From Ostreococcus lucimarinus (lineage: Eukaryota): 64,000 nt of DNA. The stretch's first letter is position 1. Every line of letters starts with the position of its first letter. The DNA is taken from NCBI GenBank assembly GCA_000092065.1, contig CP000600.1. One strand, given 5' to 3'. Positions 2,655-52,683 of this stretch are shown here, piece after piece. Below the pieces are notes generated by a model. It ran no database searches and was not told the origin of the DNA. It saw only the letters and a program-made list of their open reading frames with translations. The position numbers and the translations under genes were made by a program.

Positions 2655-3041
2655 ATGTTCCCTCCCCGCGCCGGTCAGTGCGCGTGCGTCATCGACGGCG
2701 CGCACACCGAGTTCTTGATCACCGAGTACGCCGACCGCGTCCTCGTCGTCGCGACGCAGATCGGTAAACTCGGCACGGTGTTTCATCTCTCTCGCAGTCA
2801 ATCGGTCGAGCTCAGCGATCCCTCCTACGAGGACGACGGCGAGACGATGGACGACGCGACGGCGAGCATGGACACCGTCATCGCGCGCACGGTGATCGGC
2901 AGGCGCGACGACGACGCGCTGCGGGCGTGCGCGAGAAGGATAGCGGACGTGCTGTTCACCGAAGGTTTGGAAAAGTGCGTCGAGCGACGCCGCGACGAGA
3001 CGACGCGCGAACGCGACGACGACGCGCGAACGCCAGACTGA
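2655..3041 (+). CDS. PSMG3: Proteasome assembly chaperone 3 (PSMG3/PAC3)-like small protein.
   Basis: From the internal ATG at 2655 (the upstream part of the ORF overlaps the previous gene), the sequence AHTEFLITEYADRVLVVATQIGKLGTVFHLSRSQS aligns with human PSMG3 (QVVCTAFSSHILVVVTQFGKMGTLVSLEPSS). The length is about 128 aa, as for PSMG3. Confidence 0.55.
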   Translation: MFPPRAGQCACVIDGAHTEFLITEYADRVLVVATQIGKLGTVFHLSRSQSVELSDPSYEDDGETMDDATASMDTVIARTVIGRRDDDALRACARRIADVLFTEGLEKCVERRRDETTRERDDDARTPD

Positions 3042-3261
3042 CGCGAAAACGCCGGGCGCGCGATTTTTACGACGCGCAGGCCGATCGTGTGCGCGCTGGG
3101 GTTGCGGTCGGACGCGAGCTTGGAGGCGAAGCGGGCGGTGGCGCGAGTCGCCGTCGAACGCGGTCGCGAGTTGTTGGCGGCGTCGCGCGCCGCGGAGGGA
3201 AGCGGAAGTCGTAGTTTTGATTAGCGTGCGCAGTGCTGTGCAATACATAGATGTTGATAGG

Positions 3262-23752: not shown

Positions 23753-23820
23753 CAGCATGTAACACTACTAGTACAGTAAAAGAATGACACTACGTAATGG
23801 TAGGCGCACCACGAAACCAA

Positions 23821-25131
23821 TTAAACCAAGAAGACGGTGTCCTTCAACTTTTGGACCTTGACGGAGAAGTTTTCCGCGTTGTTCAGTCGTTCCATCAAGA
23901 CGTGGCCCATGCACGCGCTCGGCGTGAAGCAACCACCGCTTCCCTCTTTCGCGAAATCCAAACGCGCGCGCTCTTCGGGAATGGCCAGGCAAAGCGCGGC
24001 TTCGCACGCGAGCGCCGCGGTGCCTTTATAACCCGGATCAGCCTTGATGAACTCGAACTCGCAGCAATACGAATCGACCGCCTCGCCCTTTGCGTCTCTA
24101 CCGTTCGCCACGACGTAGACGTGCGAAAATCCGTTCTCGCGCGTATCTTCGCTCGGACCTTCGCCTTGTTTCGGGAGTATCGTCTTTCGCATGAGCCAGC
24201 GCAGCGGAGGCACGACGAACGCCGCGCCGAACGCGCCCAACGTCAACGTGCCGAGAATCGCGTTCTTTTTCGACGCGCACAAATCGGATTCGTCGTACCT
24301 AAAGTTCTTCCCATAGCGCTCCGGATTCAGCGCGTACGACCGCGCGACGACTTTCGCGTTTATCCCCGCCATGATGCTCGGCATCGTCCATCGCTTCGTG
24401 TCCTCGTCGAACGCCCACGTCCCCTGCGGCGACGGCCATCGCTTCGCCGCTTCGACGTCCGGTTTATCCGCCCACCCCCCCGCGCACTTCGCGAAGAAAT
24501 GCGGATCCCCCATCCCGCGCGTCTCGCTCTTCGGCTTCGCCACGACGTTCGCCGCGCTCGCGATCGTCCCTCCCGACACGCCTCCCCTCGATCGTCCCGC
24601 GTGTCCTCTCGCGACGTCGATCTCCGCCGCGCCGCCGCGCTTCATCGTCGCCTCGCTCGCCAACGCCGTTCCCAGATCCCACGGCACGCTATCGTACCCC
24701 ACGCACGACACCAGCGCGCACCCCCTCGCCTTCGCCCTCTCGTGACACGTCTCCACCACGTCCCTGACGAACTGCGGCTCCCCCGTGATGTCGCAGTAAT
24801 CCGTCCCCGCGTCCGCGCAGCTCGCCGCGAGCGCGCGCGCCGCGTCCGCGTCGTACGGCCCCGCGAACGTCAGCACCGTCCGCGCGCGCCGCACCATCGC
24901 CTCGCGACTCGCCGCGTCGCGCGCGACGACGGTCGGGAACGTCACCCCGCGCGCATCGCGCGTCGCGTCCGCGCGCGCGCGTATTTTCGCCGCGTCGCGT
25001 CCCGCGATGGCGATCGACAGGTGCGGGTACTTGCGCGCGAGGTAATCCACCGCGAGCGCGCCCGTGAACCCGTTGGCGCCGTAGACGATCAGGTCGAACT
25101 CGCGCGTCGCGCGCGCCGCGACCGTCGCCAT
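23821..25131 (-). CDS. SCCPDH: Saccharopine dehydrogenase-like oxidoreductase (SCCPDH family).
   Basis: ATG at 25131 (MATVAARATREFDLIVYGANGFTGALAVDYLARKYP), matching the human SCCPDH N-terminus (FHLVVFGASGFTGQFV). Further matches: DYCDITGEPQF, SCVGYDSVPWDLG and the C-terminal GGCFTPSACMGHVLMERLNNAENFSV. The roughly 340 R-rich residues upstream in the track ORF are rejected. Confidence 0.8.
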   Translation of the reverse strand: MATVAARATREFDLIVYGANGFTGALAVDYLARKYPHLSIAIAGRDAAKIRARADATRDARGVTFPTVVARDAASREAMVRRARTVLTFAGPYDADAARALAASCADAGTDYCDITGEPQFVRDVVETCHERAKARGCALVSCVGYDSVPWDLGTALASEATMKRGGAAEIDVARGHAGRSRGGVSGGTIASAANVVAKPKSETRGMGDPHFFAKCAGGWADKPDVEAAKRWPSPQGTWAFDEDTKRWTMPSIMAGINAKVVARSYALNPERYGKNFRYDESDLCASKKNAILGTLTLGAFGAAFVVPPLRWLMRKTILPKQGEGPSEDTRENGFSHVYVVANGRDAKGEAVDSYCCEFEFIKADPGYKGTAALACEAALCLAIPEERARLDFAKEGSGGCFTPSACMGHVLMERLNNAENFSVKVQKLKDTVFLV

Positions 25132-25228
25132 CGAACGCGCCCGCGCGCGCGTCGTCGCGCGTCGATGAGTGCCGACGACGACGCACGCGCGGCGTCGCGC
25201 GACATCGCGACGCCGTCGTCGACGCGCG

Positions 25229-26533
25229 ATGGCGTCGAGCTTCGTGCGGCGCGGGCGCAGGTACAGGGACGCGCCCGCGTCGCGCGCGCGCGCGCCCGCG
25301 TCGAATGGCGACGGCGACGACGCGAATCGCGACGGCGACGACGCGAATCGCGACGAAAGGCGCGCGCGCGCGTCGAATCGCGACGGCGACGACGCGAATC
25401 GCGAGGGCGACGACGCGAATCGCGACGGCGCGGGCGTCGCGGGCGCGCGCGCGGGGCCGCACGGGCGCGCGCTCGTCTCGAGCGGGCACGGCGACGCGGA
25501 CGCGCTGCTGGGCGGCGGCCACGCGCTCGGGTCGCTCGCGGCGTGCGCGAGCGACGGCGCGAGCGCGCACGCGGAGGCGCTGTTCGGCGCGTGCTTCGTC
25601 GCGGAGGGCGCGGCGACGGCGCGGCATCGAACGTGCTGGGTGCGCGCGGGACGGGAGGGGCGGGCGGAGGCGACGCGGACGCTGCCGAGACGCGTCGTCG
25701 AGCGAGAGGGGGAGAGCGCGACGACGACGGACGATCGGGCGAGCGAGGCGAGCGAGGCGAGCGATGGGTTGCGAATCGCGTGGCAGTATCGACGATACCT
25801 GAGAGAGGGAAGGAACTTGGACGATTCCGGCGTCGGCGCGGCGCGCGCGACGACGACGGCGAGGACGACGAAGAAACGGAATTTGCGCGCGCCGGACGTG
25901 TGCCAGACGTACGATTGGACGAGGGAGGAGGATGAGGCGACGCTGCGGGACGCGGACGTTTCGTTCGAACGCTTCGGCGGCGATGAGGGCGACGGCGAGG
26001 GCGAGACGGACGCGTGGGCGCGATGTTTTGAGTTCGTGGAGACGTTCGTGCGCGGGTTGAGGGATGAGGAGGTCGGGCGCGTGTTGGTGCAGCCGGAGAC
26101 GCCGCGAGACGAAGGCGAGTGGGCCGCGTGCGCGAGGCTCGCGCGCGCGCTCAAGGGGTTGGTGCGCGAAACGAACGTCGCGTGCGTGATGATTCTTCCT
26201 CTCGCGCTCGCGCCGGCGCGATGGGGCGCGATGATTCGTCACGTCGCGGATTGCGCGATCGACGTGCAGCCGCTCGAAGGTCCGACGAGTGAGATCGAGT
26301 CGCTGTTACCCGAGCCGCACCTGTGCGTCGGGCTCGTCGCCGTTCGCAAACTTCAATTTCAAGGCGGCGTGGTGTCGCCGTTGACGCGCATGGATCGCGT
26401 GTATGCGTTACAGATGCGGAGAAAGCGCATGGCGATCAAACCGCTGCAGATTCGTCCGGAGGAGGAAAGGAAAAAGAGTGGCGGCGAGTCGGCGTGCGGC
26501 GCCGTCGAAGGCGTCGGTCTGGACGACTTTTAG
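25229..26533 (+). CDS. ELP4: Elongator complex protein 4 (ELP4/PAXNEB-like, RecA-fold).
   Basis: MASSFVRRGRR...GRALVSSGHGDADALLGGGHALGSLAA, IAWQYRRYL, GLVAVRKLQFQ and the terminus KKSGGESACGAVEGVGLDDF are collinear with human ELP4 (TSFQRRGPRA...[27 protein letters not shown]...IAWRYQ...GKKHLDF). The start is 98 bp from the divergent SCCPDH start. Confidence 0.7.
   Translation: MASSFVRRGRRYRDAPASRARAPASNGDGDDANRDGDDANRDERRARASNRDGDDANREGDDANRDGAGVAGARAGPHGRALVSSGHGDADALLGGGHALGSLAACASDGASAHAEALFGACFVAEGAATARHRTCWVRAGREGRAEATRTLPRRVVEREGESATTTDDRASEASEASDGLRIAWQYRRYLREGRNLDDSGVGAARATTTARTTKKRNLRAPDVCQTYDWTREEDEATLRDADVSFERFGGDEGDGEGETDAWARCFEFVETFVRGLRDEEVGRVLVQPETPRDEGEWAACARLARALKGLVRETNVACVMILPLALAPARWGAMIRHVADCAIDVQPLEGPTSEIESLLPEPHLCVGLVAVRKLQFQGGVVSPLTRMDRVYALQMRRKRMAIKPLQIRPEEERKKSGGESACGAVEGVGLDDF
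25308..25432 (+). repeat. In-frame 21-bp tandem repeat (GACGGCGACGACGCGAATCGC)n, about 5 units, inside the ELP4 N-terminal region. It encodes (DGDDANR)n.
   Basis: Direct reading of 25308-25432. The translation is NGDGDDANRDGDDANRDERRARASNRDGDDANREGDDANRDGAG. Confidence 0.85.
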
Positions 26534-26574: not shown

Positions 26575-28722
26575 TTACAGTTTGGCTTCCATGTTCAACG
26601 ACTTGATGGACGAAGGCGTGATCGTCGCTTCCAGAGCGGCGATGATGAAAATATGGGCGACGAGAAACGAGGCGGCTGTCGCTAAACACGCCGCGGCGGT
26701 GTCGAGAACGCTCACGGGCGTCATCCAAAATTGCATGCTGCGGTAAAACGCCGTCATGATGCTCGGTCTAGAATACGTGATCATTCGCACGCTCGACCGT
26801 TTCGTCGTCGCGACTTCGACGATCTGTTCGTCTTCGTCGACTTCGTCTGCTTCTTCTTCGACCATTTCTTCGTCTTGCTCCGTCAAAACTTCCACTTCGT
26901 CGTCGTCATCGTCGTCGTCGATTTCCTCCTCCGACGTGTTCCCACTCGTCGGACTCGGAATATACGTGCGAAGTTCGAAACGCTTGGCGGGGGTAAAGTT
27001 CACCCCTTTCTTTTTCACAGATTTCGCCGCGGCGTGTCTCAGTGCGGATGGCGGCGGATTTTTCAGCGCCGATTGCAGCGCGCTTGCCGGCGACTGTCGT
27101 CGCACCTGCACTTTCGTGGGCGGCGTGACATTCTCCGTCTCTTCGATCGCCTTCGTACCTAAAATATCCAAAAGATACATCCGCGCATCGTCGTCGCAAA
27201 TGTACAGCACGTCGTCTCTGCCACCGTCGAGGAAGAGCTGAATCGTCGCGAATTCCGTCGACGTGATGCCCCACCGCGAGCCACCGTCGAGGATGCTCTC
27301 GTGAATCTCTTTCGCGCATTCCAAATTGATTCGACCGATGCGCTCCATGCAGTCATCTGCAATCTCACACGCCTTTTCGTCGTATCTCTGACGGTCGATG
27401 TAACGATAAAACTTGGGTCGAACGAGTTTCCTAACGTGCGCCAAAACTCCGCCGGCGGCGTTCCCGCGCGCTTCGCTTACAGCCGCGACCCGCTCGATTT
27501 CGGCGTCTTCTCGTTTACTCCGCTCATTCACGACTAAATCTTTGAGATACTTCATCGCCGCGGCGTCTGTGACGTATGAATAGTCAGCGCGACCGCCTTC
27601 GATGATCATCTCAATCGTGCGAAGCTCGATATCAGTGATGCCCCAATGCGAGCCGCCATCTTCGATGCTGGCGTGGATCGCTTTCGCGCACGCCAATCCG
27701 ATCTTGCCTTGAGTTTGCGTCGCGACATCGGCAATGTGACATGCGTTCTCGTCGTACTTGACCCCGTCAATCGTCCTATACTGCGCTTGGCGCGCGAAAT
27801 TACTCAGCCTCTGCAGTGCGGCGGCGACTTTTCGCCGCTTCACCGTCGGCAAGAGTATCTCTGGCCCGAGGCTCTCTTCGTCCGCAATCAACGCGCCCAG
27901 GTGCTTTCGCGCGGCTGCATCGACTTGGAACGTATAATGCCCATCCACGCCACCCTCTACGATCATTCGAAGCGTCTGCAATCCCGCAGGTGTGATTCCA
28001 TACCTCGACCCCGTCGCCTTGACACTCAGCTCCACAGCCCGCGCGCACATTGAATCTACCTTGCCCTTCTTCTTCAAGCTCTCATCCACGATCGCGCACG
28101 CCGCTCGATCATATGACACACCATCGATTACTCTCAACTCCTTCGACGTGCTCCGCGTGGTCGCCAAGGTCACGCGCCGCATCAGACGCTCCGTCACCGT
28201 CAATCGTCTTCGCTTCGCCGCGCGTTCGCCGCGCGGCGACGTCCCGCCCCGTCTCTCTCTCTCCTCCGACGCCGCTTCTTCCCCGTCCTCCACATCGCTC
28301 CCATCCTCAAATCGCGTCGACAAATTCCGTTTCGTGCCGCTCTTTCTCGCGCTACTTCGTTCTCCACCATCCTCGCCTTCGCCGAACGCGCTCGAAATTC
28401 GCGCCGTCAACCACCGCGCGGCGTCGTCCTCCACCTTCACCACGCCTCCAGCGCCCCTTCCGCCACCGTTCGCGATCGCCGTCAGCGTCGCCGCGACATT
28501 CGGTTCGCGGTTCGTTTTCGCGAGCTCCCACAGCGCCTCCGCGCGCTCGAGCGTGAGCGGGGACTTGGTTCTTTTCGATTTTTGTCCCGAAGTCAAGATT
28601 TGTAACAGACTCTGCACGACATCGTCGTTGTATTTCGGCGTCGACGGGCGTCCGCGCGCGGGCGACGCTTTGCGCGCGGGCGAGCGAGGGGTTTTACGCG
28701 TCGTCGGCGCGCGCGCGGGCAT
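26575..28722 (-). CDS. Protein with four tandem repeats of a roughly 88-aa module that I cannot place in a named family. It has a basic N-terminus, a poly-acidic tract and a C-terminal TM helix, suggesting a tail-anchored topology.
   Basis: ATG at 28722 (MPARAPTTRKTPRSPARK). Three well-conserved repeats and one degenerate copy follow. The repeat consensus is YRxIDGVxYDExACxIADxxxxxxGxIxLxCAKxIHxSIxDGGSxWGITxxELxTIxMIxEGGRxDxxYxxDxAAxxYLxDL. Then comes EEEIDDDDDDDEVEVLTEQDEEMVEEEADEVDEDE, and finally the hydrophobic stretch VLDTAAACLATAASFLVAHIFIIAAL. Confidence 0.55.
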   Translation of the reverse strand: MPARAPTTRKTPRSPARKASPARGRPSTPKYNDDVVQSLLQILTSGQKSKRTKSPLTLERAEALWELAKTNREPNVAATLTAIANGGGRGAGGVVKVEDDAARWLTARISSAFGEGEDGGERSSARKSGTKRNLSTRFEDGSDVEDGEEAASEERERRGGTSPRGERAAKRRRLTVTERLMRRVTLATTRSTSKELRVIDGVSYDRAACAIVDESLKKKGKVDSMCARAVELSVKATGSRYGITPAGLQTLRMIVEGGVDGHYTFQVDAAARKHLGALIADEESLGPEILLPTVKRRKVAAALQRLSNFARQAQYRTIDGVKYDENACHIADVATQTQGKIGLACAKAIHASIEDGGSHWGITDIELRTIEMIIEGGRADYSYVTDAAAMKYLKDLVVNERSKREDAEIERVAAVSEARGNAAGGVLAHVRKLVRPKFYRYIDRQRYDEKACEIADDCMERIGRINLECAKEIHESILDGGSRWGITSTEFATIQLFLDGGRDDVLYICDDDARMYLLDILGTKAIEETENVTPPTKVQVRRQSPASALQSALKNPPPSALRHAAAKSVKKKGVNFTPAKRFELRTYIPSPTSGNTSEEEIDDDDDDDEVEVLTEQDEEMVEEEADEVDEDEQIVEVATTKRSSVRMITYSRPSIMTAFYRSMQFWMTPVSVLDTAAACLATAASFLVAHIFIIAALEATITPSSIKSLNMEAKL

Positions 28723-38830: not shown

Positions 38831-39916
38831 ATGCGTCGCGCGCTCGAGCGCGCGCTTCGCGAGCGCGCGCGCGATGCCGCGCGCGTCGACGCGCGCGCGG
38901 TGCTCGCGCGATGCGAGGCGTCGAGCGCGCGGGACGCGGCGTCGAGCGCGCGCGCGAGGCTCGCTCGGGCGACGACGACGACGCGCGCGATGGCGAGCGA
39001 CGCGCGCGGGCGCGACGCGGCGGTTCTGGCGTTCGCGCGCGTTCGTGGGTTCGCCGCGAGCGCGCGCGCGGAGACGGAGACGACGTCGACGCGCGACGAC
39101 GAAGGCGACGACGAAGGCGACGGCGACGACGAGACGACGGTGAACTCGAAACGAGAGCAGATGCGAGACGAAAGGAATTTCAACGCGCCCAACGCGCTGT
39201 GCGTGGGCAGAATTGTCGCCGGTCCCGCGCTGGCGTACGGCGTCGCGAGCGGCGCGTCGCCGGAACTCGTGCTCGGCGGCGTCGCGGCGGCGGCGTTTAC
39301 GGATTATTTGGATGGATTTCTCGCGAGACGGTGGAAGCAAGGGACGATTTTGGGGAGTTATCTCGACCCGATCGCGGATAAGGTGTTCGTTGGGTGCGTG
39401 GGGACGGCGTTGGCCTTGGAAGGGTCGCTTCCAGTGTGGCTCGTGGGGTTATTGGTGAGTCGCGACGCGATTCACGTCGTCGGCGGGGCGTGGCGACGCG
39501 CGGGCGCGTTGGGGTGGAAATGGAAAACCGTGGGAGAGTTTTTAGGATTTGACGATAAGCCCGTGAGTCGACCGCCGCCCACTGGAGCGGCCGCGCTCGC
39601 GGGGTTCGATTTTGACGAAGTCGAGCAGCTCGGGTCGAAGCGCGGGGCGCTGAGGCCGCTCTTCATCGGCAAGGTGAATACGGCGCTGCAAATGGCGCTC
39701 ATCACGTTCGCCGTGAGCGAACCAGTGTTCGCGGCGCATGCAGGATCGCCGATGATGGCGCCCGCGCTCGAGCTCGTAGCTGATAGAACAGTGCGCGTCA
39801 TTCTGGAATACGCCACGGCGGCGTCCGCCGTCGTCGCCACGGCTGAGTACACTCGCATCTTTCTCGCTCATCCCGGTTTCGACGCGGACGGGCAAATTAA
39901 AGTGAGGAAAAAGTAA
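38831..39916 (+). CDS. CRLS1-like: CDP-alcohol phosphatidyltransferase, cardiolipin synthase (CRLS1-type)-like, with an R/A-rich presequence.
   Basis: [19 protein letters not shown]...[33 protein letters not shown] contains the D(x2)DG(x2)AR(x8)G(x3)D(x3)D motif and aligns with eukaryotic cardiolipin synthase (TDLLDGFIARNW...GSALDPLADK). TM helices lie downstream. The N-terminal roughly 100 aa are low-complexity R/A-rich. Confidence 0.65.
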
Positions 39917-40031: not shown

Positions 40032-42182
40032 CTAGCGTGAGTCGTCGATGTCTCTCATGAATCGGTGAGTGGCTTCTTCTAGCGGAGTTCGTACAACACG
40101 AACGGATTCTCGCGTGAGACGATTGCGGATGCGCATCTTGACGGCGCGCGCTCGAGGCGCGCTCCAATTGTAGCATAGCATATTAGCACAAACCAAAGAT
40201 TCGCCAGGTTGAAGGTTTCGTACGTCGCTCAAGTTGGCTTCCTGCAGTGCCGCGTTACGTGCAATGTGATCAAACCAGCGCGCAGAGTTGAACTGGTGCA
40301 AAACGTGCACCGTCGCGAGCTCGACGAGGGCCTCAGGAATCGCGAATGGGCTCGTCGTGCCGACGACGAGACGCGTGTTTGTCCGATGCATCGTTCGAGC
40401 GGCGTTCACAAGTTGACCAGCAAATCCCGCTCGCGAGCCGAGGCTGAGCAACAGATCCGCGTCATCGATTACGATGAGCTTTTTCGGTGGGGAGCGTCGG
40501 TTCCGTGCGGTCCGTTTCAACGGGAGATCCATTTTTTGAAACATGCTGAGAGCGACTTGGAAGATGGCGTCTACAAAATCCGGCTCGTACTCCGAATGCG
40601 TCACGTCGACGACGTTGAGCGCGTCGACGAGCACGGCTTGTTCGAACACGCGCATCACTACGCCCTCGACGTGAACATTTTCGTAGTTTTCGTAGATGAA
40701 TGATTTGACTTGCTGCGCGCGCGCAAGGAGTAACTGTCCACGACTTCCATCTCTCTGGGCTCTAAAGCTGTCGCACAATCCTTCAAAAAATTGTTTGAAC
40801 GAAGTCCGGTGACGAATCATCTTCAAAATCTGCTCGTCATCTTCTATGCCGAGCATAATGCACAAGTGCTCGCTCGTGAGCGAATTCCATCCGAAAAGTA
40901 GTGGCGAAACCATTCCGACGAAACCATTCCGATCGTACTCGTCGCAGATTTCTGGAGCGCGACTTTCGATATGTTTGGGCGCCGAGAGCACTTTGACATT
41001 AGGCGCGCGACAGTTGGAATTTTTGCCACAGAGCGTTTCCAAATGTAGACTCAAGACGGATAACCCGAGAAAATTCGCAAGCGATGCATCTTTAGAAAAG
41101 GCGTCGGTCGTCGAAGTGCTAAACGTAATCGCCGTCGTCCAGTCCTGTGGCGGGTCAACCATTCCCTGACGCATCAAACAGTTTTCGACGAGTACATCGA
41201 CGGTGTGAGACGTACTCGCCCCGGGTGCGCCGTACACCAGACCACAGAACGGAATGCCGACGTCCATGAACATTTCTCTCTTATCGACGAATTCGTTTTG
41301 CGCAAAATGCTTCGGAACGTCGAACAGCGTTCCCAAGACGGCCATGTCTCGAGCCGTCTCGTCGACTCTGTCGTGGCTCACAAGCGTCGGACGCGCGTCT
41401 CTCCACGCGCGGCCGACTGACCTATCGCACATGTACGCCAACACACTCGCGGCGCCGGCGGACTTGTCTAAAGCGATAGGAGAGGAGTCCGTCCCGTGCT
41501 TCGGCGAAATCTCCGCGCTGTCGTCGAAAACCGGCGCAGGCGACCCCGATCGCTCGCTCCCGGCACTTTCCAGCGCATCATACACATTCCGCACTCGCAC
41601 CGGCGGCGGCGCCTTCTGTTCCACCACGCTCGCAAATTTCGCCGCCTTCGCCGTTTCCTTCGCCGCGTGCGCCAGTTCCTGATGTCGTCTCGTCCGCGCG
41701 TGTTGCAACCAATTATTCGCCAAATTCGCCTCTCCGCTGCCCCGAATCGTCACCGCGCACGTCTCGCACGTCCTCGTCGGGAATTCCAACGCCGATTCCC
41801 CCACCGTCGCGCGCGCTCTCCCTCCCGGCTCCCTCTTCTCGAGCTTCGTCCTTCGTCGCCGCTCCGCGTTCAGCAAGTGTTCCTCCGAGTTCGCGTGTCG
41901 CCCCCACGCCGCGAAGAACTGCTTCTTATCGTCCTCGTTCACCTCGAAGTTCTCGCACAGCGTGCACTTGCGATGGTACTCCCGCTTCGGCGTCGTCTCG
42001 CGCGTCGCGCCGTCGCCGTCGCCGCGGACGCGCGCGCCGCACGCGCCGTCCCGATGTTTCGCGAGCGCTAAACTCGCGAGCGTTTCCGACGCCCCGAAGC
42101 ACACCTCGCCGCACCGCTCGCACGACGCGCACCACGCGTCGTCGTCGTCGCTTTCGTCCGACGTCTCGCTCGACGCGCGCAT
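40032..42182 (-). CDS. Protein with three N-terminal C2H2/U1-matrin-type zinc fingers followed by a large domain with a degenerate P-loop (Walker A lacking the Lys) and a Walker-B-like hhhhDD motif. Family unassigned.
   Basis: ATG at 42182 (MRASSETSDESDDDDAWCASCERCGE). CxxC...H...H units appear in CASCERCGE..HRDGAC, CTLCENFE...HANSEEH and CETCAV...HARTRRH. Downstream are GLVYGAPGASTSHTVDVLVENC (Walker-A-like) and PPKKLIVIDDADLLLS (Walker-B-like). The R-rich first 190 residues of the track ORF are rejected. Confidence 0.5.
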   Translation of the reverse strand: MRASSETSDESDDDDAWCASCERCGEVCFGASETLASLALAKHRDGACGARVRGDGDGATRETTPKREYHRKCTLCENFEVNEDDKKQFFAAWGRHANSEEHLLNAERRRRTKLEKREPGGRARATVGESALEFPTRTCETCAVTIRGSGEANLANNWLQHARTRRHQELAHAAKETAKAAKFASVVEQKAPPPVRVRNVYDALESAGSERSGSPAPVFDDSAEISPKHGTDSSPIALDKSAGAASVLAYMCDRSVGRAWRDARPTLVSHDRVDETARDMAVLGTLFDVPKHFAQNEFVDKREMFMDVGIPFCGLVYGAPGASTSHTVDVLVENCLMRQGMVDPPQDWTTAITFSTSTTDAFSKDASLANFLGLSVLSLHLETLCGKNSNCRAPNVKVLSAPKHIESRAPEICDEYDRNGFVGMVSPLLFGWNSLTSEHLCIMLGIEDDEQILKMIRHRTSFKQFFEGLCDSFRAQRDGSRGQLLLARAQQVKSFIYENYENVHVEGVVMRVFEQAVLVDALNVVDVTHSEYEPDFVDAIFQVALSMFQKMDLPLKRTARNRRSPPKKLIVIDDADLLLSLGSRAGFAGQLVNAARTMHRTNTRLVVGTTSPFAIPEALVELATVHVLHQFNSARWFDHIARNAALQEANLSDVRNLQPGESLVCANMLCYNWSAPRARAVKMRIRNRLTRESVRVVRTPLEEATHRFMRDIDDSR

Positions 42183-42248
42183 CGAGCGTCGCGTCGCGCG
42201 GAGAGAAGTGACGCGCGGGGTCGTTGACCGAGATCGACACGACGACAG

Positions 42249-42980
42249 ATGACGACGCCCGCGATCGACGAGCTCGACGCCGCGCTCGCGCTCGCGGACG
42301 ACGCGCGCGCGGCGGTGGGCGACGTTCAACGCGCGCTGCGCGCGAACGGACGCGACGCGAGGGACGGCGATGCGGTGGCGAACGCGATCCGACGGCTCGC
42401 GCGAACGGCGGAAAAGATCGACGTAACGTGGCGCGCCGTCGTCGCGAGCGATGGGTATCGATCCATGGCGCGCGAGGACGCGTTGGAAGACGGCGAGGCG
42501 CGCGAGGCGCGCGCGGGCGCGCGCGCGCGCGAAGGCGGTGATGGCGACGGGAAGGGCGCGAGCGGTTTGGCGGCGAGCGCGCGCGAGGCGAACGCGCGAG
42601 GCGGCGTGCGAGCGGAAACGTCCGCGGACGACGACGGAACCCTCGTGCGCGTGATCGCGCCCGGTGCGTTCGACGCGCGATGGCGCGCGAACGATCCCGC
42701 GAACGCGGCGACGACGACGGCGCGCGCCGTCGACGGCGGCGTCACCGCCGCGCACGCCGCGCTCTCCGACCGGTTACTCGAATTCGCCGCCGACGCGCTC
42801 GCGCGCGCGGGCGACGCCGAGGCGGCATCGATAGAAATACTCGCCTGGCTCGAGGATCTTCGCGACGTGTTCGTCGTCCCAGATTTCGCGAGCGGCGGCC
42901 GCGTGCTCGCGCCGGACCCGTCTCGCGGCGGCGTCCTCGTCCCCGGTCGCCTCCTCCCCGGTCGCGTCGCTCGCGCGTGA
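42249..42980 (+). CDS. Hypothetical protein (243 aa, Ala/Arg/Asp-rich), divergent from the zinc-finger gene (66 bp between start codons).
   Basis: ATG-initiated ORF with a non-repetitive segment ([30 protein letters not shown]...[23 protein letters not shown]). No homology recognised. It could be a GC-bias ORF. Confidence 0.3.
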
Positions 42981-43275
42981 CGTCGCGTGTAATCGACGCA
43001 TCGCGCCCCCTTTCCATCGCTCGCGCGCGCCGCCGTCTCGTCTCGCGTCGCGCGCCGCGTCGATCGACCCCCCTCGTCGACCGACTCATCGACCGTTAGT
43101 CGTCGGTGCGGTGCAAATCTCATCTCGTCGCGACGGTTCAGGACTCGTCGAACGGATTCGTCAACCGTTCACGGGCCGCGCCCTGTCGCACACCGCGCCG
43201 TCGCCGTCGACGACGACGGCGACGCGCGCGCGCGCGAGCCGCGGACTCTCGGACGGGACGCGTCGCCGTCGCGAG

Positions 43276-46200
43276 ATGGACGCGCGGACGCGCCGCGACG
43301 CCGCGACGCGCGCGCGACGCGAATGCATCGCCCGCGGCCGCGGCGACAACGGCCGCGCGCGCGCGCGCGATGACGCGCGAGGAAGGACGCGCGAGGCGAA
43401 GGGACGGCCGGCGGCGCGCGCGATGGGGGCGAGGCGAACGCGCGGATCGGGACGACGCGGGACGAATCGGCGCGGCGCGGCGCTGGCGACGGCGCTGGCG
43501 ATGGGTCTGACGCTCGCGGTCGAGGGGGCGACGTCGCCGTTTACGTCGCGCGGCGATTTAGATAACGCGATCATGGCGTGTCTGGCGGACGACGAAACGT
43601 TGGCGACGTGCAGGGACAGCGCCGCGACGCCGGTGCCGATTGGCTCGTGGGACGTCGCAGCCATCGTCGACATGTCGAGGTTGTTCGACTCCGGGTCCGT
43701 CGGACGCTTTGTGAACGTCGACATCGGTTTGTGGGACACGTCATCGGTGACCGACATGAACGCCATGTTCAAAGGTCAGACAAACTTCAACCAAGACCTC
43801 AGCACGTGGGACACGTCATCGGTGACGGACATGAGCGGTATGTTCCACGACGCGTCGAGTTTCAATCAGAACATCCCGACGTCGGGAGTACAATGGGACA
43901 CGTCACAAGTCGAGTTCTTTGATACGATGTTCAAAAACGCGGTGGCGTTCAATCAGGACATCAGCTCCTGGGTCGTCAGCGCCGCGGCAAACTTCAATTC
44001 CATGTTCTCTGGAGCGACGAGCTTCAACCAGGACATCACCGGATGGATTGGCGCCAGCGGTGCCTCCGCGGACAATATGTTCTCTGGAGCGACGGCGTGG
44101 CTCAACAACTACGGCCCGACCACAGCGGGCTCAACCACAACCGATGGTCCCGCGAGCGCGTGGGGCAAGTTATGCGCGGCGAACCAGCGCGTGGTTTCGA
44201 ACGCGTGCCAGGCGTGCCCCACCGGGAGCGTGCGCGCCGCGGGCGATAATGCAAAGGGAGTTGACACGGCGTGCGCGTGTCCCGCCAACCATTATTACGT
44301 CTCGGGCGGTGGGTGTTTGGCGTGCGCTAGCGGTCTGTTCCGTCTCGCGGGTGACGTTGCGCCCGGAGGACATACGGCGTGTACGTACGCGTCGCCGTTC
44401 ACGTTGAAGGCCGAACTCGTGAACACGATCGCGTCTTCGTACTGCCTGGGCGGCGCCGCCGCCCCCACCGGAGCTTCGTGTACGGACGGCAAGGGGTTGG
44501 GGATCGCGAATTGGGATGTCAGCGGTGTCAACGACATGGCGGGGTTGTTCCAAGCGTCCAGTTCTAGCTGGACCTCGACCACGTTCAACGCTGATTTGAG
44601 CCTGTGGGACACGTCGTCGGTGGTAGACATGAACAACATGTTCAACGGCGCGACGAGCTTTAACCAGGACATCAGCTCGTGGGACACGTCGTTGGTGGTG
44701 AACATGAACAACATGTTCAACGGCGCGACGAGCTTTAACCAGGACATCAGCTCGTGGGTGACGCAATCGGTGACGGACATGGGCGCGATGTTTGAAAACG
44801 CGGCGGCGTTCGACCAGCCCATCCCGAAGTCGGGATCACAGTGGGACACGACGTTGGTGAAGGACATGAGCAACATGTTCTTCGGCGCAGCGGCGTTTAA
44901 CCAAGACCTCAGCACGTGGGTGACGCAATCGGTGGTGGACATGAGCGCGATGTTTCAAAACGCGCCGCTCTTCAATTATAGTATGGTGACATCGGGTAGC
45001 GTTTGGGACACGTCGTCGGTGACAAACATGGACAACATGTTCAAAGACGCGGTGGCGTTCAACCAGGACATCAGCTCCTGGGTCGTCAGCGCCGTGGCAA
45101 ACTTCAATTCCATGTTCTCTGGAGCGAGGAGCTTCAACCAGGACATCACCAGATGGAATAGCGCCAGCGATGCCTCCGCGGACAATATGTTCTCTGGAGC
45201 GGTAGCGTGGATCACCGACTACGGCCCGATGACAGCGGGCTCAGTCGATGGTCCCGCGAGCGCGTGGGGCAAGATATGCGCGGCGAACCAGCGCATTGTT
45301 TCGAACGCGTGCCAGGCGTGCCCCACCGGGAGCGTGCGCGCCGCGGGCGATAATGCAAAGGGAGAGGACACGGCGTGCGCGTGTCCCGCCAACCATTATT
45401 ACGTCTCGGGCGATGGGTGTTTGGCGTGCGCTAGCGGTCTGTTCCGTCTCGCGGGTGACGTTGCGCCCGGAGGAGATACGGCGTGTACGTACGCGTCGCC
45501 GTTCACGTTGAAGGCCGAACTCGTGAACACGATCGCGTCTTCGTACTGCCTGGGCGCCGCCGCCGCCCCCTCCGGAGCTTCGTGTACGGACGGCAAGGGG
45601 TTGGGGATCGCGAATTGGGATGTCAGCGGTGTCAACGACATGGCGGGGCTGTTCCAAGCGTCCAGCTCTAGCTGGACCTCGACCACGTTCAACGCTGATT
45701 TGAGCTTGTGGAACACGTCGTCGGTGGTGAACATGAACAACATGTTCAACGGCGCGACGAGCTTTAACCAGGACATCAGCTCGTGGAACACGGCGTTGGT
45801 GACGGACATGAACAACATGTTCAACGGCGCGACGAGCTTTAACCAGGACATCAGCTCGTGGAACACGTCGTTGGTGGTGAACATGAACAACATGTTCAAC
45901 GGCGCGACGAGCTTTAACCAGGACATCCGCTCGTGGGTGACGTCGTCGGTGACGGACATGGGCGCGATGTTTGAAAACGCGGCGGCGTTCGACCAGCCCA
46001 TCCCGAAGTCGGGATCACAGTGGGACACGACGTTGGTGAAGGACATGAGCAACATGTTCTTCGGCGCAGCGGCGTTTAACCGAGACCTCAGCACGTGGGT
46101 GACGCAATCGGTGACGGACATGGGCGCGATGTTTCAAAACGCGCCGCTCTTCAATTATGGTATGGTGACATCGGGTAGCGTTTGGGACACGTCATCGGTG

Positions 46201-49200
46201 GCAAACTTCAATTCCATGTTCTCTGGAGCGACGAGCTTTAACCAGGACATCAGCTCGTGGAACACGGCGTTGGTGACGGACATGGACAACATGTTCAAAG
46301 ACGCGGTGGCGTTCAATCAGGACATCAGCTCCTGGGTCGTCAGCGCCGCGGCAAACTTCAATTCCATGTTCTCTGGAGCGACGAGCTTCAACCAGGACAT
46401 CACCGGATGGATTGGCGCCAGCGGTGCCTCCGCGGACAATATGTTCTCTGGAGCGACGGCGTGGCTCAACAACTACGGCCCGACCACAGCGGGCTCAACC
46501 ACAACCGATGGTCCCGCGAGCGCGTGGGGCAAGTTATGCGCGGCGAACCAGCGCGTGGTTTCGAACGCGTGCCAGGCGTGCCCCACCGGGAGCGTGCGCG
46601 CCGCGGGCGATAATGCAAAGGGAGTTGACACGGCGTGCGCGTGTCCCGCCAACCATTATTACGTCTCGGGCGGTGGGTGTTTGGCGTGCGCTAGCGGTCT
46701 GTTCCGTCTCGCGGGTGACGTTGCGCCCGGAGGAGATACGGCGTGTACGTACGCGTCGCCGTTCACGTTGAAGGCCGAACTCGTGAACACGATCGCGTCT
46801 TCGTACTGCCTGGGCGGCGCCGCCGCCCCCACCGGAGCTTCGTGTACGGACGGCAAGGGGTTGGGGATCGCGAATTGGGATGTCAGCGGTGTCAACGACA
46901 TGGCGGGGTTGTTCCAAGCGTCCAGTTCTAGCTGGACCTCGACCACGTTCAACGCTGATTTGAGCCTGTGGGACACGTCGTCGGTGGTAGACATGAGCAA
47001 CATGTTCAACGGCCAGATGGCGTTCAACCAACCCATCCCGACGTCGGGGTCACAATGGAACACGGCGTTGGTGACGGACATGAACAACATGTTCAACGGC
47101 GCGACGAGATTTAACCAGGACATCAGCTCGTGGGACACGTCGTTGGTGGTGAACATGAACAACATGTTCAACGGCGCGACGAGCTTTAACCAGGACATCA
47201 GCTCGTGGGTGACGCAATCGGTGACGGACATGGGCGCGATGTTTGAAAACGCGGCGGCGTTCGACCAGCCCATCCCGAAGTCGGGATCACAGTGGGACAC
47301 GACGTTGGTGAAGGACATGAGCAACATGTTCTTCGGCGCAGCGGCGTTTAACCAAGACCTCAGCACGTGGGTGACGCAATCGGTGGTGGACATGAGCGCG
47401 ATGTTTCAAAACGCGCCGCTCTTCAATTATAGTATGGTGACATCGGGTAGCGTTTGGGACACGGCGTTGGTGACGGACATGAACAACATGTTCAACGGCG
47501 CGACGAGATTTAACCAGGACATCAGCTCGTGGGACACGTCGTCGGTGGTGAACATGAACAACATGTTCAACGGCGCGACGAGCTTTAACCAGAACATCAG
47601 CTCGTGGAACACGGCGTTGGTGACGGACATGGGCGCGATGTTTCAAAGCGCGGTGGCGTTCAACCAACCCATCCCGAAGTCGGGATCACAGTGGGACACG
47701 TCGTTGGTGACAAACATGAACAACATGTTCGGCGGTGCCACGGCGTTCAACCAGGACATCGGCTCCTGGGTCGTCAGCGCCGTGGCAAACTTCGATTCCA
47801 TGTTCTCTGGAGCGACGAGCTTTAACAAGAACATCACCGGATGGATTGGCGCCGGCGGTGCCTCCGCAAACAACATGTTCTCTGGAGCGACGGCGTGGAT
47901 CGCGAGGTACGAGCACACGTCCAATCCTGGCAACAGCTTTCATGGTCCCGCGTCGGCTTGGACTGGTCCCGTTCCGTTTGCCAACTTGGCCGCTTTGCAA
48001 ACCGCCGTGACCAATTGCTTGAACAGCGCTCCGTCCGGCGCGTGCACGTGCTCGCCCAGTGTCGACTGCGGCGCCGCGCTGTACGAACCGATCACAAACT
48101 GGGACACGAGTCTGGTCGCCGACATGAATGCTTTGTTCCAAAGCGCCACTCTTTTCAACGCCAACATTGGATCGTGGAATACCGAGCAGGTGACGAGAAT
48201 GGACAACATGTTTAGCGGCGCGGCTGCGTTCAACCAGCCAATTGGCAGTTGGAACGTCACCGCGGTCACCGATGCGAGCCATATGTTTCAGGGCGCTACG
48301 GCTTTTGTTCACGACATCACCGGTTGGGTTTTATCGCAGACGCCCCAGGCGAATGTGACGTCAATGTTTGTCAATGCGATAGCATGGATAAACGAGCGTG
48401 ATCGTATAGACGGATCCGCGTCTCTCGACGGTCCACCCTCGGCGTGGTACACGCCGGCGCCGCCGCCGCCGCCGTCACCGCCGCCACCCCCGCCACCAAC
48501 GTGCGGTAACGGTGTCTACGATGCCGCTGGTACGAACCCAGATGGAACTCTTGGGGAGACGTGTGAACCGTACGGGAATTCCATCGATAACACCGTTCTC
48601 GTGCAGGGTTGCGATCCAGCCACGTGCGCGCCTTTTGAGAACTGGCAGTGCAACGATCCGTCTACGATCGGCACACCAGATTACAACTGTACGTGCAACA
48701 ATCCCGCAGGCACGTACGCGTTACCAGATGTCAATTTTTGCGCGCGCGTGAAATGCGTTTACGCAGATCGATGTCTCTCCGAAGGCCGCGGCTGCGCGCC
48801 TGGTGCTGGTGGCAACGCGTGCGACCGTTGCTACACGGCGCAAGACATCGTCGATCTCGGATTGGAAGCTTCTCTAGCCAAAGCGGGTTACTACAAAACG
48901 GGCCAAACGTGCACTGAGTGCCCTGGGACCTCGGCAGGTCAACTCTTCGCTGCCGCTACGCTTGTAGTCGTTCTGGCGTTCTTTGGTTTCAAAGCTTCGC
49001 AAGTCATGGGCCCTCAAGCGACAAACAACTTGAAGAAGATTATCGAATCTTTGCAGTTTTTTTCGCTTTCGCTGAGTATGGACATCAAATGGCCTGGCCC
49101 GGTACTTAACCTCGGCAAGTACTTGGAAGCTTTCACGTTCAGCGTCGACTTTCTGAGACCAGAGTGCGTGGCTACTGGTCTCAATTGGCTCAATATTTTC

Positions 49201-52200
49201 CTAGCGTCTGTGTTTGTTGTCCCTGCACTTATCTTTTTCATCATCGTCTTCAACAACTTCAGATCAAGGCGACGGTTCGAACGAACAGTGCGTTCAATTC
49301 ACTGCGAACGGCGCGATGGAGGTGCGATGGTATACTGGATTGAAAGACCGGGTCGTTTGTGGGGCATAAGGCGCACGTTCGAATCCAAAGGAGGAGATAA
49401 AATTGTCAAGGAATTGCAGAGGCAATACCGCTTCCGAGCCTCCCTCAGAAGCTTTGGCGTGTTGTCCATGACTGTGTTATACCTGCCCATAGTCCGTATG
49501 TGCCTCCAGGCTTTCGACTGTCTCGAAATAGACGGTATCGAGAGCACGCGTCTAGAACACGACATCGACATCGATTGCGAGAGTACTTCTCATGTGACAA
49601 TCCAGGCGGCGGCGGCGGTTATGTTGGCCATCGTCGGAATCGGTATGCCGATTTACGTCATCTCACAAGTGCGGAAACTTTCAAATACGGGGAAGTTAGA
49701 TGATCCACAAACCATCGACGCATACGGTCCATTCTACGATATATATCGTAGAGAAGATCTTACGTATTCGCACAAATTGGAGATTGCCAGACTTCGACAA
49801 ACGACGGTTCGCTCGAGATCTATTCCTCGCGGTAGCGACGATGAAGACGATCGCGAAGAAACGACGTTTGATACCGAAACTGAGCGTGTCGCTGATGAAA
49901 TTGAAAACGATATCAGACAAGATATTGAGGAACCAAACGAAGGCACTTCGTTGGAAACTACCGATGGACCCACTGACGACGTCGAGCAAGGTGAAGATTT
50001 CAACCCTGAACTCGGGAAGAAGAAAGTTTTTGGTAAAGGAAGAAAGTCAAAAGACGGGCGCTTAGCTCAAGTATTATCTATGAGTAAGTCAATGTTGCAG
50101 CGCACTCCGTCTGCGCAAGCGCGCGAGCGCGTGAAAAAGATGAGCTGGAAAGATCGGTTCTCAGTGTATTACCTCTCGGTGGAATTATGCCAGAAGAGCG
50201 GTGTCATTCTCATGACTTCGCCCTTCATCAGCGCTTCGCCTCTCAGTGGCTGGGGCCTTGTATTCATCCACTGGTTCCTCGGCATTTTCGTCTACATTTG
50301 TCAACCTTGGAGAATAATCACGTTGAGTTTCTTCGGTTTTAAGGTGTCAAATTGTCTGAACAAAGTCGAAACTATGGCGGCGTTCCTGCAAGGTGTGACG
50401 CCCGCCTTGGCGATGATATGGCCAGTTAAGCGAGACGCTGACGGCATCGTGCAGGAAAGTTTCACGCTCGAGATGATGACTGGTCTTATGACTGCCATCA
50501 TCACGGGTTTACTCGCTATTCGCATCATCGTATTCGTCGGGGAACGCGTCGCGGTCAAACGCGCAAAGATGGACATCGACAAGGAACCCGAAGCATGCAT
50601 TGAGATTGTTCGTGAACGACTCGTCGAGATGGCGAAGAAACGTGCGGTCGTGAGCTTGTTCGCGTTCAAGGCAGACTTTGATATAACACGGCGCAAAGCG
50701 CGGGCGAGAATAGAGATCACGCGTCAAGCTATGTTGACTAGAATCGACACTTTGAAGTCGGAGATGGCTAGCACCGAAGGTCAGGGTATCGATTACACGG
50801 AGCAAATCACGGCCTTGTATGAAGTGGCGAATCAGATGGCACATATCGTGAATACCGTTGTACCGATGCCTCCACCTGTTGGGCCTGCTGTAGAGGAGCG
50901 TATAGACGCTCTCGAGGCGCAGTTGTCGAAACTTTCCGTGGCCGAGGACGAACGCTACGTCGCCGCACGACAAGAGTCAGAGCCGTCGCCGAACGCTGCG
51001 GCAATGCACATAATTTTCAAGGTGCACATCGTCGATTGCATCGTTGCACAAGTCAACGAACAGCTTGAAGTATACGCGAGTGCAGAGTTAGTGAGCGATT
51101 TAGCCGTTCTTGGACGACGACATGCCGAGTTGTTGAGCGAGCAGAGCGCCATAACTTCTCAATTCGGCGACTCCGAGCTTCGTGCAACTTCAGACGAGTT
51201 ATCTTCATCAGCCGTTCCGTTACTAGAAGCGAACGAACGTGATGACTTCGAAAAGGTATCTTCCACGCTCCATCACTGTGCGAGCGTCATCGATGCGCAC
51301 GCGCAGTGGTGTATGACGCAGAGCGAGCTGTTCAGTGGCCTCAAGAGGGAGCACCCTACTTTCCTTCCGGACGAACCACCATTGACAACGGAGTGCTTCG
51401 AATCGTGCATCAAAGATCTGAAGACACATGAAAAGCAGATGGAGTTAGTTAGGACGCAGTGCATCAGCGACTGGCTTCCAATGTTCAAACATTTCGGTTG
51501 CGTCAAGTATCTCAGAGGGTTCGCCGAGCAGATTCGTAATCAACTCAGTCTCAATCTCAATGGAGAGATCACGCCAGAAGAAGCCAAGGTGGTGTATGAT
51601 GACACCGTTGCCTTCATGGATGGCTTCGCCTCGTGGTGTGCAGATTTGTGTGGCATAATCGAAACGTCAGACGTTTTCAATGAGTTTCAACCCATCGCCT
51701 CGGCCATGATGAAGAGCCTGAAGGTGATACAGATCGACGCTAAGAAGCAAAGCATGCTCGCTCAAAAAGTACTGTCGGCCGTCGACTATGCTTTGGCGCA
51801 GAAGTCCACCGCAGAGGCCGTGCGAAATAATTTGCAGCAGGCGTTGCGCGATTTAACGTCGAAAATGGAGGAGCATCTTGCCGTTCAGATGGATGAAATG
51901 AAGAATGAGAAGATCGCTCTCGAGAGAGCGTATGAAGAAGAAAAGGTGCAAACCGAGGAGGACATCAACGTCCTCGAGAAAACGTTCGCTGAGAGAAAGG
52001 CCACGATGGAGCGCGAATTTGCACTGCAGCGCGACATAGTCGAACGATTACTCGTCATGAAGCAAGAAGAGAAGGCCGCGGTCGCTCCGTCTTTGAACCC
52101 ATTCAGACGCGTACGCTTCGAGTACGAAAACGAGCTCGCGAGCGCCAATAAGGAGTGCCTCAGGATCTCACGAGCCTTGGAGAGAGAAGAGAACGTGAAA

Positions 52201-52683
52201 AATATGCAGTGTGAAAACTTGCTTCGAGCGATGCAGCAAACCGAGCGTCAGCTGCGAGCGCAGATTAAAATCCACGATTCACTCATGGCAAAGATGGAAG
52301 CCGATGTCTTGGATCACCTCAAAAAGCAAGGCAACGTGGCGCAAAAGCGAACGGCTCACGATATCGCGGCGAACAAGGCCGTGCTCGCGTCGCGAAAAGC
52401 CATCTATAAGCAGCAACGTATCGCTGCACAGCTGTACGTATCCGTAGAACGCGAGACTACGAGAGCTCAAGTCGGTCTCACGAGAACGAAACTTGCGGTG
52501 GCTAAACGTAAAGGGCTGCTTGTACGCACAACCTCGCGCCTGACGGGAAAATCCCTGCGGTCAAAATCGCGAAAGAAAGCGCACGACGAAAACGAGACGG
52601 TCAAAGACGATCAACAAGAAAAGGAGGTTGAAGATCAAACCGCGGTTGATGAAAAAAGCAACGTCACGGAGACGAAGACGTAA
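43276..52683 (+). CDS. Giant (about 3,100 aa) single-exon surface protein. Domain order: signal peptide, long arrays of DUF285 (PF03382-like, 'Mycoplasma' 26-aa) repeats interleaved with a Cys-rich module, a poly-Pro linker, an EGF/TNFR-like Cys-rich stalk, a multi-pass TM region, then a coiled-coil cytoplasmic tail of about 900 aa. Alternative start at the ATG at 43423.
   Basis: A signal-like segment, [20 protein letters not shown], is followed by more than 40 repeats of [MF]FxxAxxFNQDIS[ST]WDTSxVTDMxxMF. The Cys-rich module [59 protein letters not shown] recurs. [15 protein letters not shown] tract (about 48455-48500) precedes the Cys-rich stalk PTCGNGVYD...CTECPG. Hydrophobic helices follow, starting with [16 protein letters not shown], at about 48950-50560. 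A long E/K/Q/L-rich heptad region runs from about 50600 to 52680. The R-rich residues before 43276 are likely not coding. Confidence 0.8.
43700..47900 (+). repeat. Higher-order tandem repeat array inside the giant gene. The 78-bp DUF285 units are organised into three nearly identical segmental copies: about 44100-45200, 45200-46458 and 46458-47900.
   Basis: Long identical strings recur. 'ctacggcccgaccacagcgggctcaaccacaaccgatggtcccgcgagcgcgtggggcaagttatgcgcggcgaaccagcgcgtggtttcgaacgcgtgccaggcgtgccccaccgggagcgtgcgcgccgcgggcgataatgcaaagggag' occurs at about 44110 and 46470, with a near-identical copy at about 45210. The roughly 170-bp string beginning 'gcggtggcgttcaatcaggacatcagctcctgggtcgtcagcgccgcggcaaacttcaattccatgttctctggagcgacgagcttcaaccaggacatcaccggatgg' occurs at about 43935 and 46300. 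Confidence 0.9.

Follow-up and report, generated by a model that had tools for sequence, protein, structure and literature searches.

A giant PARCEL/DUF285-repeat protein of Ostreococcus lucimarinus with a predicted polytopic core remotely related to the TRP-like PF06011 domain

The giant gene and the parts of its product

The window analysed here, i.e. the whole 64,000-nucleotide (nt) stretch of contig CP000600.1 from Ostreococcus lucimarinus (assembly GCA_000092065.1), carries on its plus strand a giant open reading frame (ORF; 43276-52683, including the stop codon at 52681-52683), which encodes 3135 amino acids (aa) from its first ATG and is the longest in the window by a factor of three. 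The frame is open from a GTG at 43111 onward and contains no internal stop, in agreement with an earlier note made from the letters of this DNA alone, in which an uninterrupted ORF of roughly 9.4 kb had been described. Four neighbouring ORFs encode proteins identical to the letter with proteins of O. lucimarinus CCE9901 (e.g., XP_001422691, XP_001422533 and XP_001422519), and Micromonas or a pelagophyte as the source was rejected accordingly. The ORF is a real gene of O. lucimarinus, and its product is, with high confidence, a giant polytopic surface protein composed of a probable signal peptide, an ectodomain, a hinge, a stalk, a nine-helix membrane core and a helical tail. Judging from sequence comparisons, stalk, core and tail are conserved together as a cassette that carries different ectodomains in different lineages, and the core is a remote relative of the transient receptor potential (TRP)-like domain of the fungal Pkd2/Flc proteins (PF06011).

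The true start of the protein likely lies at a second ATG (43423), which is more plausible than that at 43276 because a signal-peptide-like stretch (aa 50-85, 43423-43530, h-region mean hydropathy 1.46, read from the sequence) follows it directly and the 49 residues ahead of it are rich in Arg and Ala. Every unit of the repeat array lies between this signal-peptide-like segment and the first transmembrane (TM) helix, TM1.

The DUF285 nature of the repeats, already proposed in the earlier note, was borne out by a Pfam scan, in which PF03382 (DUF285) reached 1099.1 bits against a cut-off of 25 over 14 stretches, and by an NCBIfam scan, in which TIGR02167 (PARCEL) reached 169.3 bits (cut-off 30) and NF045896 reached 675.7 bits (cut-off 500). 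A hidden Markov model (HMM) made from the protein's own units placed 42 of them, about 37 strong, in five blocks and mostly at a spacing of 25 aa, which corresponds to the DNA period of 75 nt obtained with Tandem Repeats Finder (TRF); the count of more than 40 copies given in the note thus holds, whereas the period is 25 aa and not 26. Block 1 (aa 125-274, about six units, 43648-44097) was delimited with Pfam, NCBIfam and the self-built HMM, and blocks 2 (aa 413-644, about nine units, 44512-45207), 3 (aa 781-1062, about 11 units, 45616-46461) and 4 (aa 1201-1540, about 13 units, 46876-47895) with Pfam, TRF and the same HMM. The HMM also located block 5 (aa 1609-1681; with its flank aa 1609-1700, three to four units), preceded by a four-Cys cap or linker (aa 1557-1608), the two together occupying 47944-48375; the cap motif recurs in the ortholog P0107, which is described below. 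Outside the gene family the best matches of the ectodomain are bacterial and archaeal "BspA family leucine-rich repeat (LRR) surface proteins", at 40-50% identity. The occurrence of DUF285 in Ostreococcus is not new, having been known since 2010, when the PARCEL/DUF285 ORFs of O. lucimarinus, O. tauri and Micromonas were catalogued, with polytopic ones as a category (Roske et al., PMC2996958).

A module of about 110 aa, with ten Cys residues and the motifs CxACPxG...CACPANHYY...GCLAC, occurs in three copies, one in each gap between PARCEL blocks 1, 2, 3 and 4. Module 1 (aa 291-402, 44146-44481) was found by translation and repeat analysis, while modules 2 (aa 659-770, 45250-45585) and 3 (aa 1079-1190, 46510-46845) belong to repeat family D4 and share with module 1 a DNA identity of 98% and, over 300 nt, of 100%, respectively. 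Each of the three is part of a longer super-repeat (1.1-1.26 kb), with a DNA identity of 94-100% between copies, which suggests that duplication or gene conversion took place very recently. The earlier note had compared these modules with the cysteine repeats of tumour necrosis factor receptors (TNFR) and ephrin receptors; the modules are indeed present, but the likeness is sub-threshold only, their sole Pfam match being TNFR_ELAPOR1_6th, whose score of 13.6 bits falls short of the 33.2 required. None of the TNFR/ephrin Pfam families (PF00020, PF07699, PF23091) exceeded its gathering score in the modules or in the stalk.

Both the poly-proline linker and the stalk that the earlier note placed after the repeats are present. 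The hinge (aa 1727-1741, 48454-48498), evident from the sequence, is kept at the same position in the relatives P0013, P0015, P0020 and P0024, and is followed by a 15-Cys stalk (aa 1743-1882, or aa 1743-1886 when taken up to the TM core, 48502-48933), identified by sequence and alignment, which ends in GYYKxGxxCxxCP right ahead of TM1. In relatives the equivalent stretch matches DUF7630 and Ephrin_rec_like in Pfam. Profile searches of a PARCEL block and of the stalk against PDB sequences matched no solved structure.

The membrane region is likewise not a single-pass anchor, the at least six hydrophobic helices claimed in the note being confirmed by six hydropathy peaks that resolve into 8-9 helices in an AlphaFold model of the TM part built with 25 homologues. 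The first half of the core (aa 1887-2138, 48934-49689; hydropathy, AlphaFold and alignment) contains TM1, an amphipathic helix and TM3-TM5, with the motifs WPGP, FLRPEC, FDC...C and GxP, and the second half (aa 2291-2429, 50146-50562; AlphaFold and hhalign) contains TM6 to TM9. Between them lies a charged, acid-rich loop of about 150 residues (aa 2139-2290, 49690-50145, with 35 D/E and 26 K/R; AlphaFold and hhalign), predicted to be cytosolic, which is mostly of low confidence or disordered in the model and constitutes an insertion relative to the wider superfamily. In order, the region runs through TM1, the amphipathic helix, TM3, an Arg-rich inner loop, TM4, an acidic outer loop with two Cys, TM5, the charged inner loop, TM6-TM9 and the inner tail. 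The predicted topology, with the N-terminus outside, nine spans and the C-terminus inside, follows from the Arg/Lys-rich loops after TM3 and TM5, which point inward, and from the acidic two-Cys TM4-TM5 loop and the conserved Cys of the PEC motif, which point outward. No other part of the protein is as conserved as this core, and many invariant polar, charged, Pro and Gly residues occur within and beside its helices. It matched no solved structure in the PDB, and no Pfam match or fold similarity was found to the canonical six-TM TRP/polycystin pore domain (PKD_channel, Ion_trans). When the TM region and the tail were themselves scanned with Pfam and NCBIfam, no family was returned, apart from DUF7228 at chance level.

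The tail comprises 710 aa after the last TM helix, rather than the roughly 900 aa given in the earlier note, and is predicted by AlphaFold to be all-alpha (mean predicted local distance difference test score, pLDDT, 84.4). Its first part, a conserved cytosolic multi-helix domain (aa 2430-2804, 50563-51687; AlphaFold pLDDT about 90, alignment), consists over some 370 aa of helices, each 20-40 residues long and packed together, in which the motifs RRKARARLE, ALYEVANEMA and WC as well as Trp and Cys residues are conserved, and it is not a low-complexity coiled coil. AlphaFold then predicts three very long helices of 131, 73 and 63 residues (aa 2805-2935, 2951-3023 and 3027-3089; 51688-52542), rich in E/K/R/Q/A/L, and a charged C-terminus (aa 3090-3135, 52543-52680) which, with a pLDDT below 40, is probably disordered. 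The E/K/Q-rich composition described in the note is confined to the last ~285 aa, the only part of the tail rich in E/K/R/Q, and the heptad signal of this part, as measured with a crude score of a/d positions, lies within two standard deviations of shuffled sequence, so that the coiled coil is no more than a possible one. A profile search of the PDB with the family gave weak matches to coiled-coil proteins only (E >= 0.15). The tail, which is lineage-specific on the sequences compared, matched neither a Pfam or NCBIfam family nor a solved structure in the PDB.

A conserved cassette with changing ectodomains

A search with aa 1851-3135 retrieved 30 homologues, all from metagenomes, at 36-100% identity. 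Stalk, TM core and tail are present in all 30, and the N-terminal parts vary: DUF285 arrays are found in P0004-8, P0028-30, P0197, P0200 and P0204, Cys-rich repeats with a few DUF285 units in P0007, and an unrelated domain with poly-Pro in P0013, P0015 and P0024. It is on this pattern that the description of the stalk, core and tail as a cassette is based.

The closest comparison is provided by P0107, an ortholog of 3091 aa from an independent assembly, and by the representative of its cluster, P0004. P0004 is 86% identical to the O. lucimarinus protein in the TM core and tail, whereas the ectodomain of P0107 is merely 45% identical and lacks the Cys-rich TNFR-like modules. The length of P0107 and the difference between these two identities show that the giant size is real and that turnover is far quicker in the ectodomain than in the remainder of the protein. 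The ectodomain evolves through repeat duplication and shuffling, as expected of an exposed surface that meets bacteria, viruses and other cells.

Short-read metagenome assemblies of this locus (L006-L014) give products of 1311-2347 aa as against 3135 aa, which may result from collapse of the repeats in such assemblies or from real copy-number variation. A further relative, P0009, begins inside the stalk, and in three assemblies (L003, L004, L005) the contig bearing it breaks off some 700 nt upstream of the gene, probably owing to an assembly break at the ectodomain repeats. Since short-read assemblies break the gene at its repeats, surveys based on them likely under-count such genes.

Some observations were also made on the surroundings of these relatives. 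A cardiolipin-synthase gene lies near both the P0009 locus and the O. lucimarinus gene (38831-39916 of the window), hinting at a conserved neighbourhood. On a 1.24-Mb metagenome contig, P0006 (L002, 1537-14298) is preceded by three separate DUF285 ORFs, perhaps a broken ectodomain, and followed by Prim-Pol and D5-like (DUF5906) genes, which suggest an adjoining integrated viral or mobile element. P0007 (L015, 1-6665) adjoins a giant ORF of more than 3500 aa that ends at the contig edge and contains TSP1_ADAMTS repeats, so that giant surface-protein genes may cluster. A viral origin of the TM core is unsupported, a scan of IMG/VR viral contigs having given no relative.

Relation of the core to the PF06011 superfamily

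A profile of the stalk and TM region, made from nine family members and run against 1.84 billion cluster representatives, matched 613 proteins at E <= 1e-3, 26 of them below 1e-30. The distant matches (E 1e-25 to 1e-8) cover profile positions roughly 47-410 and come from dinoflagellates, stramenopiles and other protists. When 38 of them were scanned with Pfam, Ephrin_rec_like (PF07699) was found in 19, DUF7630 in 14 and PF06011 ("TRP") in ten (best E 6.7e-10), and the PF06011 cut-off of 28.5 bits was passed by P0261 (32.3 bits), which the family profile matches at E 1.2e-11, and by P0477 of Symbiodinium (28.7 bits). Alignment of the family with an alignment of 30 distant proteins in hhalign gave a probability of 100% and E 4.5e-48 over 356 colinear columns, its path running through TM1-5, over the charged loop as a family-specific insertion, and then through TM6-8. 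On PF06011 the distant group's consensus reaches 44 bits, and for the consensus of the family with the loop removed PF06011 is the top Pfam match, at a sub-threshold 12 bits (E 0.094). On these profile comparisons the core belongs to a wide protist superfamily overlapping PF06011, direct membership of PF06011 not being demonstrated. The view that the multi-pass domain has no known relatives is therefore no longer tenable, as the profile search and hhalign place it as the core of a gene family remotely related to PF06011. Several of the distant relatives also carry a match to the newer Pfam accession PF26010, which may model part of them, possibly the TM domain.

The nearest known arrangement is found in protist proteins with an ectodomain, an Ephrin_rec_like/DUF7630 stalk and a PF06011-like TM region, e.g., Symbiodinium "GABBR2" (P0477), Triparma laevis TL16_g06118 (P0476) and the EukProt transcript P0261, for which no experimental characterisation was found in the literature. 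They have in common with the O. lucimarinus protein the stalk motif GYY..C..CP, the loop motifs WPP, PEC, FDC...C, G.P and G.LY..Y, the TM core, and the modular use of differing ectodomains. In contrast, the ectodomains of the distant relatives are of the FG-GAP, Kelch, TIG, ANF_receptor or CUB type, their tails contain SH3 or START domains, and both the charged loop and the helical tail are missing.

The fungal PF06011 proteins (Pkd2, Trp663 and Trp1322 of S. pombe, Flc1-3 of S. cerevisiae and TrpR of A. nidulans) resemble the O. lucimarinus protein in overall plan, as predicted for Pkd2, to which a signal peptide, an extracellular domain, nine TM helices and a cytoplasmic tail controlling clustering have been ascribed (bioRxiv 10.1101/2022.08.11.503631). 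The Ca2+ permeability of Pkd2 is reported to be activated by membrane stretching (PMC9727806). Homology of the TM core with this set is backed by the threshold-passing intermediates together with the colinear sub-threshold consensus match. The O. lucimarinus protein differs from it in the charged loop inserted between TM5 and TM6 and in its tail, which is ordered, helical and conserved over 710 aa, whereas that of Pkd2 comprises 135 aa and is mostly disordered.

With the PARCEL surface proteins, such as LppQ and LppC of mycoplasmas, the BspA family LRR proteins and the ORFs catalogued by Roske et al. in 2010, the 25-residue tandem repeat is shared, as is the variation in repeat number and order. 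Most of these are lipoproteins or single-pass proteins, while the O. lucimarinus protein joins the repeats to a channel-like cassette that is eukaryotic and conserved; in the 2010 catalogue polytopic PARCEL proteins figure only as a category, the TM core and tail being undescribed (PMC2996958). What is new, as far as can be judged from sequence, is the conserved stalk/core/tail family with its differing ectodomains and the superfamily homology of the core. In polycystin-1 and the adhesion G-protein-coupled receptors (GPCRs) of animals, too, a multi-pass core bears a modular ectodomain of great length, with adhesive repeats, on a stalk and continues into a cytosolic tail with long helices, although the likeness is one of functional analogy only.

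Possible function and alternative explanations

Tentatively, we propose that the protein is a sensor of surface contact or tension with a TRP-like, putative cation-channel core. Its ectodomain of about 1600 aa, i.e. the five PARCEL blocks split by Cys modules, would face the outside, and binding to or pulling on this long variable array, or stretching of the membrane, would act as the stimulus. The disulfide-rich, rigid stalk and the conserved outer loops would then couple force to the core, which would open to cations such as Ca2+, and the helical tail, on its side of the membrane, would oligomerise the protein or tether and cluster it. Architecture, family and remote homology come straight from the computed results, whereas topology, ion conduction, ectodomain-driven gating and the function of the tail are what we infer, the mechanism by analogy with Pkd2. 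Of the cell-surface adhesin or receptor with a cytoskeleton-like tail envisaged in the earlier note, the domain order and the surface receptor or adhesin with an unusual multi-pass anchor are retained, whereas the link between tail and cytoskeleton is unsupported.

Several points weigh against this interpretation. The connection with PF06011 is, on the sequences compared, transitive and complemented by one sub-threshold consensus match, and aa 1701-2475 of the O. lucimarinus protein, when compared directly with PF06011, gave no match at E <= 10. There is no Pfam match to the Ig/ML-like (TRP_N) lipid-binding domain of the fungal members, which is replaced here by about 1600 aa of PARCEL repeats and the Cys-rich stalk. 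PF06011 is moreover "TRP-like" by name, and to our knowledge neither pore architecture nor oligomeric state has been established even for Pkd2, while the Flc proteins of budding yeast are proteins of the endoplasmic reticulum (ER) for which a flavin-carrier role was described. For the TM part, the AlphaFold model is of moderate quality only, with a mean pLDDT of 61.6 and 75-90 in the helices and core. Exact look-ups of the 3135-aa and 3086-aa products in NCBI and UniRef returned no record, and the N-terminal 371 aa, used as a query, matched bacterial DUF285 proteins and metagenome fragments (77-94% identity) but no public model of identical sequence. Finally, the proposal leaves unexplained the low G+C content at third codon positions (GC3) in the half of the gene that encodes the TM core and tail: GC3 is ~0.81 in the ectodomain part of the ORF (43276-48400) and ~0.58 in the stalk/TM/tail part (48400-52683), as against 0.68-0.86 in neighbouring genes, and the same depression is seen in the family gene at the homologous loci L001, L003 and L016. 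This drop may reflect weak codon bias, gene conversion raising the GC content of the repeats, or history.

Somewhat less likely than the sensor, in our estimation, is a passive surface coat or adhesin, in which the PARCEL array would adhere or shield the naked cell, the core would serve only as a sturdy anchor or for trafficking, the tail would fasten the protein to cortical structures and no ions would be conducted. In bacteria, PARCEL/DUF285 proteins are annotated as surface proteins or adhesins (PMC2996958), the name used at NCBI being "BspA family leucine-rich repeat surface protein"; a pore or channel motif could not be demonstrated, and the tail is long and helical, all of which would be in keeping with such a coat. 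A single helix would however suffice as an anchor, yet it is the TM core that is most conserved, with invariant polar, charged, Pro and Gly residues in and near its helices, and this core is kept across protist phyla together with unrelated ectodomains and tails, which argues for an activity of its own. An Flc-like channel or carrier of the endomembranes (ER, Golgi or vacuole), with luminal repeats and a role in the homeostasis of Ca2+ or a cofactor or in glycoprotein processing, is improbable. The predicted topology is the same for luminal as for extracellular exposure, and Flc1-3-type PF06011 proteins of budding yeast and Cryptococcus are described as regulating calcium homeostasis and flavin transport (PMC9600462). 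However, 1600 aa of disulfide-rich, fast-diversifying repeats of bacterial type on a poly-Pro hinge are typical of exposed surface proteins, and Pkd2, a PF06011 member, sits at the plasma membrane (PMC9727806; bioRxiv 10.1101/2022.08.11.503631).

We give a similarly small chance to the protein being a variable determinant facing viruses or grazers, such as a receptor for or decoy against prasinoviruses, merely presented by the core and tail. Ostreococcus cells are naked, the ectodomain of the orthologue is 45% identical as opposed to ~86% for the TM core and tail in its cluster, the super-repeats are near-identical, and the metagenome assemblies of the locus yield products of differing length, as reported above, although this variation may be due to repeat collapse in short-read assemblies. 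None of the viral contigs in IMG/VR encodes the core, and the gene is typical of the window in composition and lies among housekeeping genes (for histidyl-tRNA synthetase, Vps53, an E(z)-type SET protein, an RNase E/G with a starch-binding domain and a papain-type protease), not in a visible outlier region; a virus-facing role is, in addition, compatible with the sensor model. Very improbable, lastly, is an artefact, whether two genes fused by chance or through mis-assembled repeats, or a decaying pseudogene. The sharp change of GC3 within the ORF, the lack of a public protein model with this sequence among those searched and the proneness of repeats to mis-assembly would fit such an origin, but 9408 nt are free of stops in a genome of ~60% GC, and DUF285 repeats, stalk, TM core and tail are joined in one ORF in independent assemblies and diverged relatives (P0107 with 3091 aa, P0004, P0007, P0197, P0200). 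Furthermore, a TM core with its N-terminus outside needs an N-terminal signal and ectodomain, and the TM core and tail are clearly constrained, as seen in the 86% identity of P0004.

Under the sensor reading, the gene is a concrete candidate for surface sensing in Ostreococcus, the smallest free-living eukaryote, which has neither wall nor scales, its outer array being hypervariable and its channel-like core conserved. Should this core conduct Ca2+, the fungal Pkd2/Flc group would be extended to a broad eukaryotic class of receptor-channels, and marine picoplankton would offer an experimentally accessible case of surface recognition tied to signalling. A bolder proposal, to which we attach a low probability, is that modular "adhesion TRP-like channels" exist in protists, combining a conserved nine-helix cation-channel core with interchangeable ectodomains, the Mamiellophyceae version having a horizontally acquired, reshuffled bacterial PARCEL array and a lineage-specific helical tail. 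If true, physical contact of a wall-less picoalga with other cells, bacteria or viruses would be translated without intermediate into a Ca2+ signal, and such a channel would be an independently evolved functional analogue of polycystin-1 and adhesion GPCRs. Taken by its sequence, the protein has no feature outside known categories; it combines a known repeat family, a remote TRP-like core and a lineage-specific tail in one gene product, and appears to be a good candidate for experiments.

Elsewhere in the window, the most GC-rich stretch (23797-26242, GC 0.71) contains overlapping long ORFs on both strands (23797-25935 on the plus strand, 23821-26154 and 24689-26242 on the minus strand), the first of which has a G+C content of 0.85 at first codon positions and only 0.63 at third positions, so that the real frame is ambiguous. 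Two minus-strand ORFs, 26575-28722 (715 aa) and 40032-42755 (907 aa), match no Pfam family at E <= 0.001, and the latter is the immediate upstream neighbour of the giant gene, in divergent orientation.

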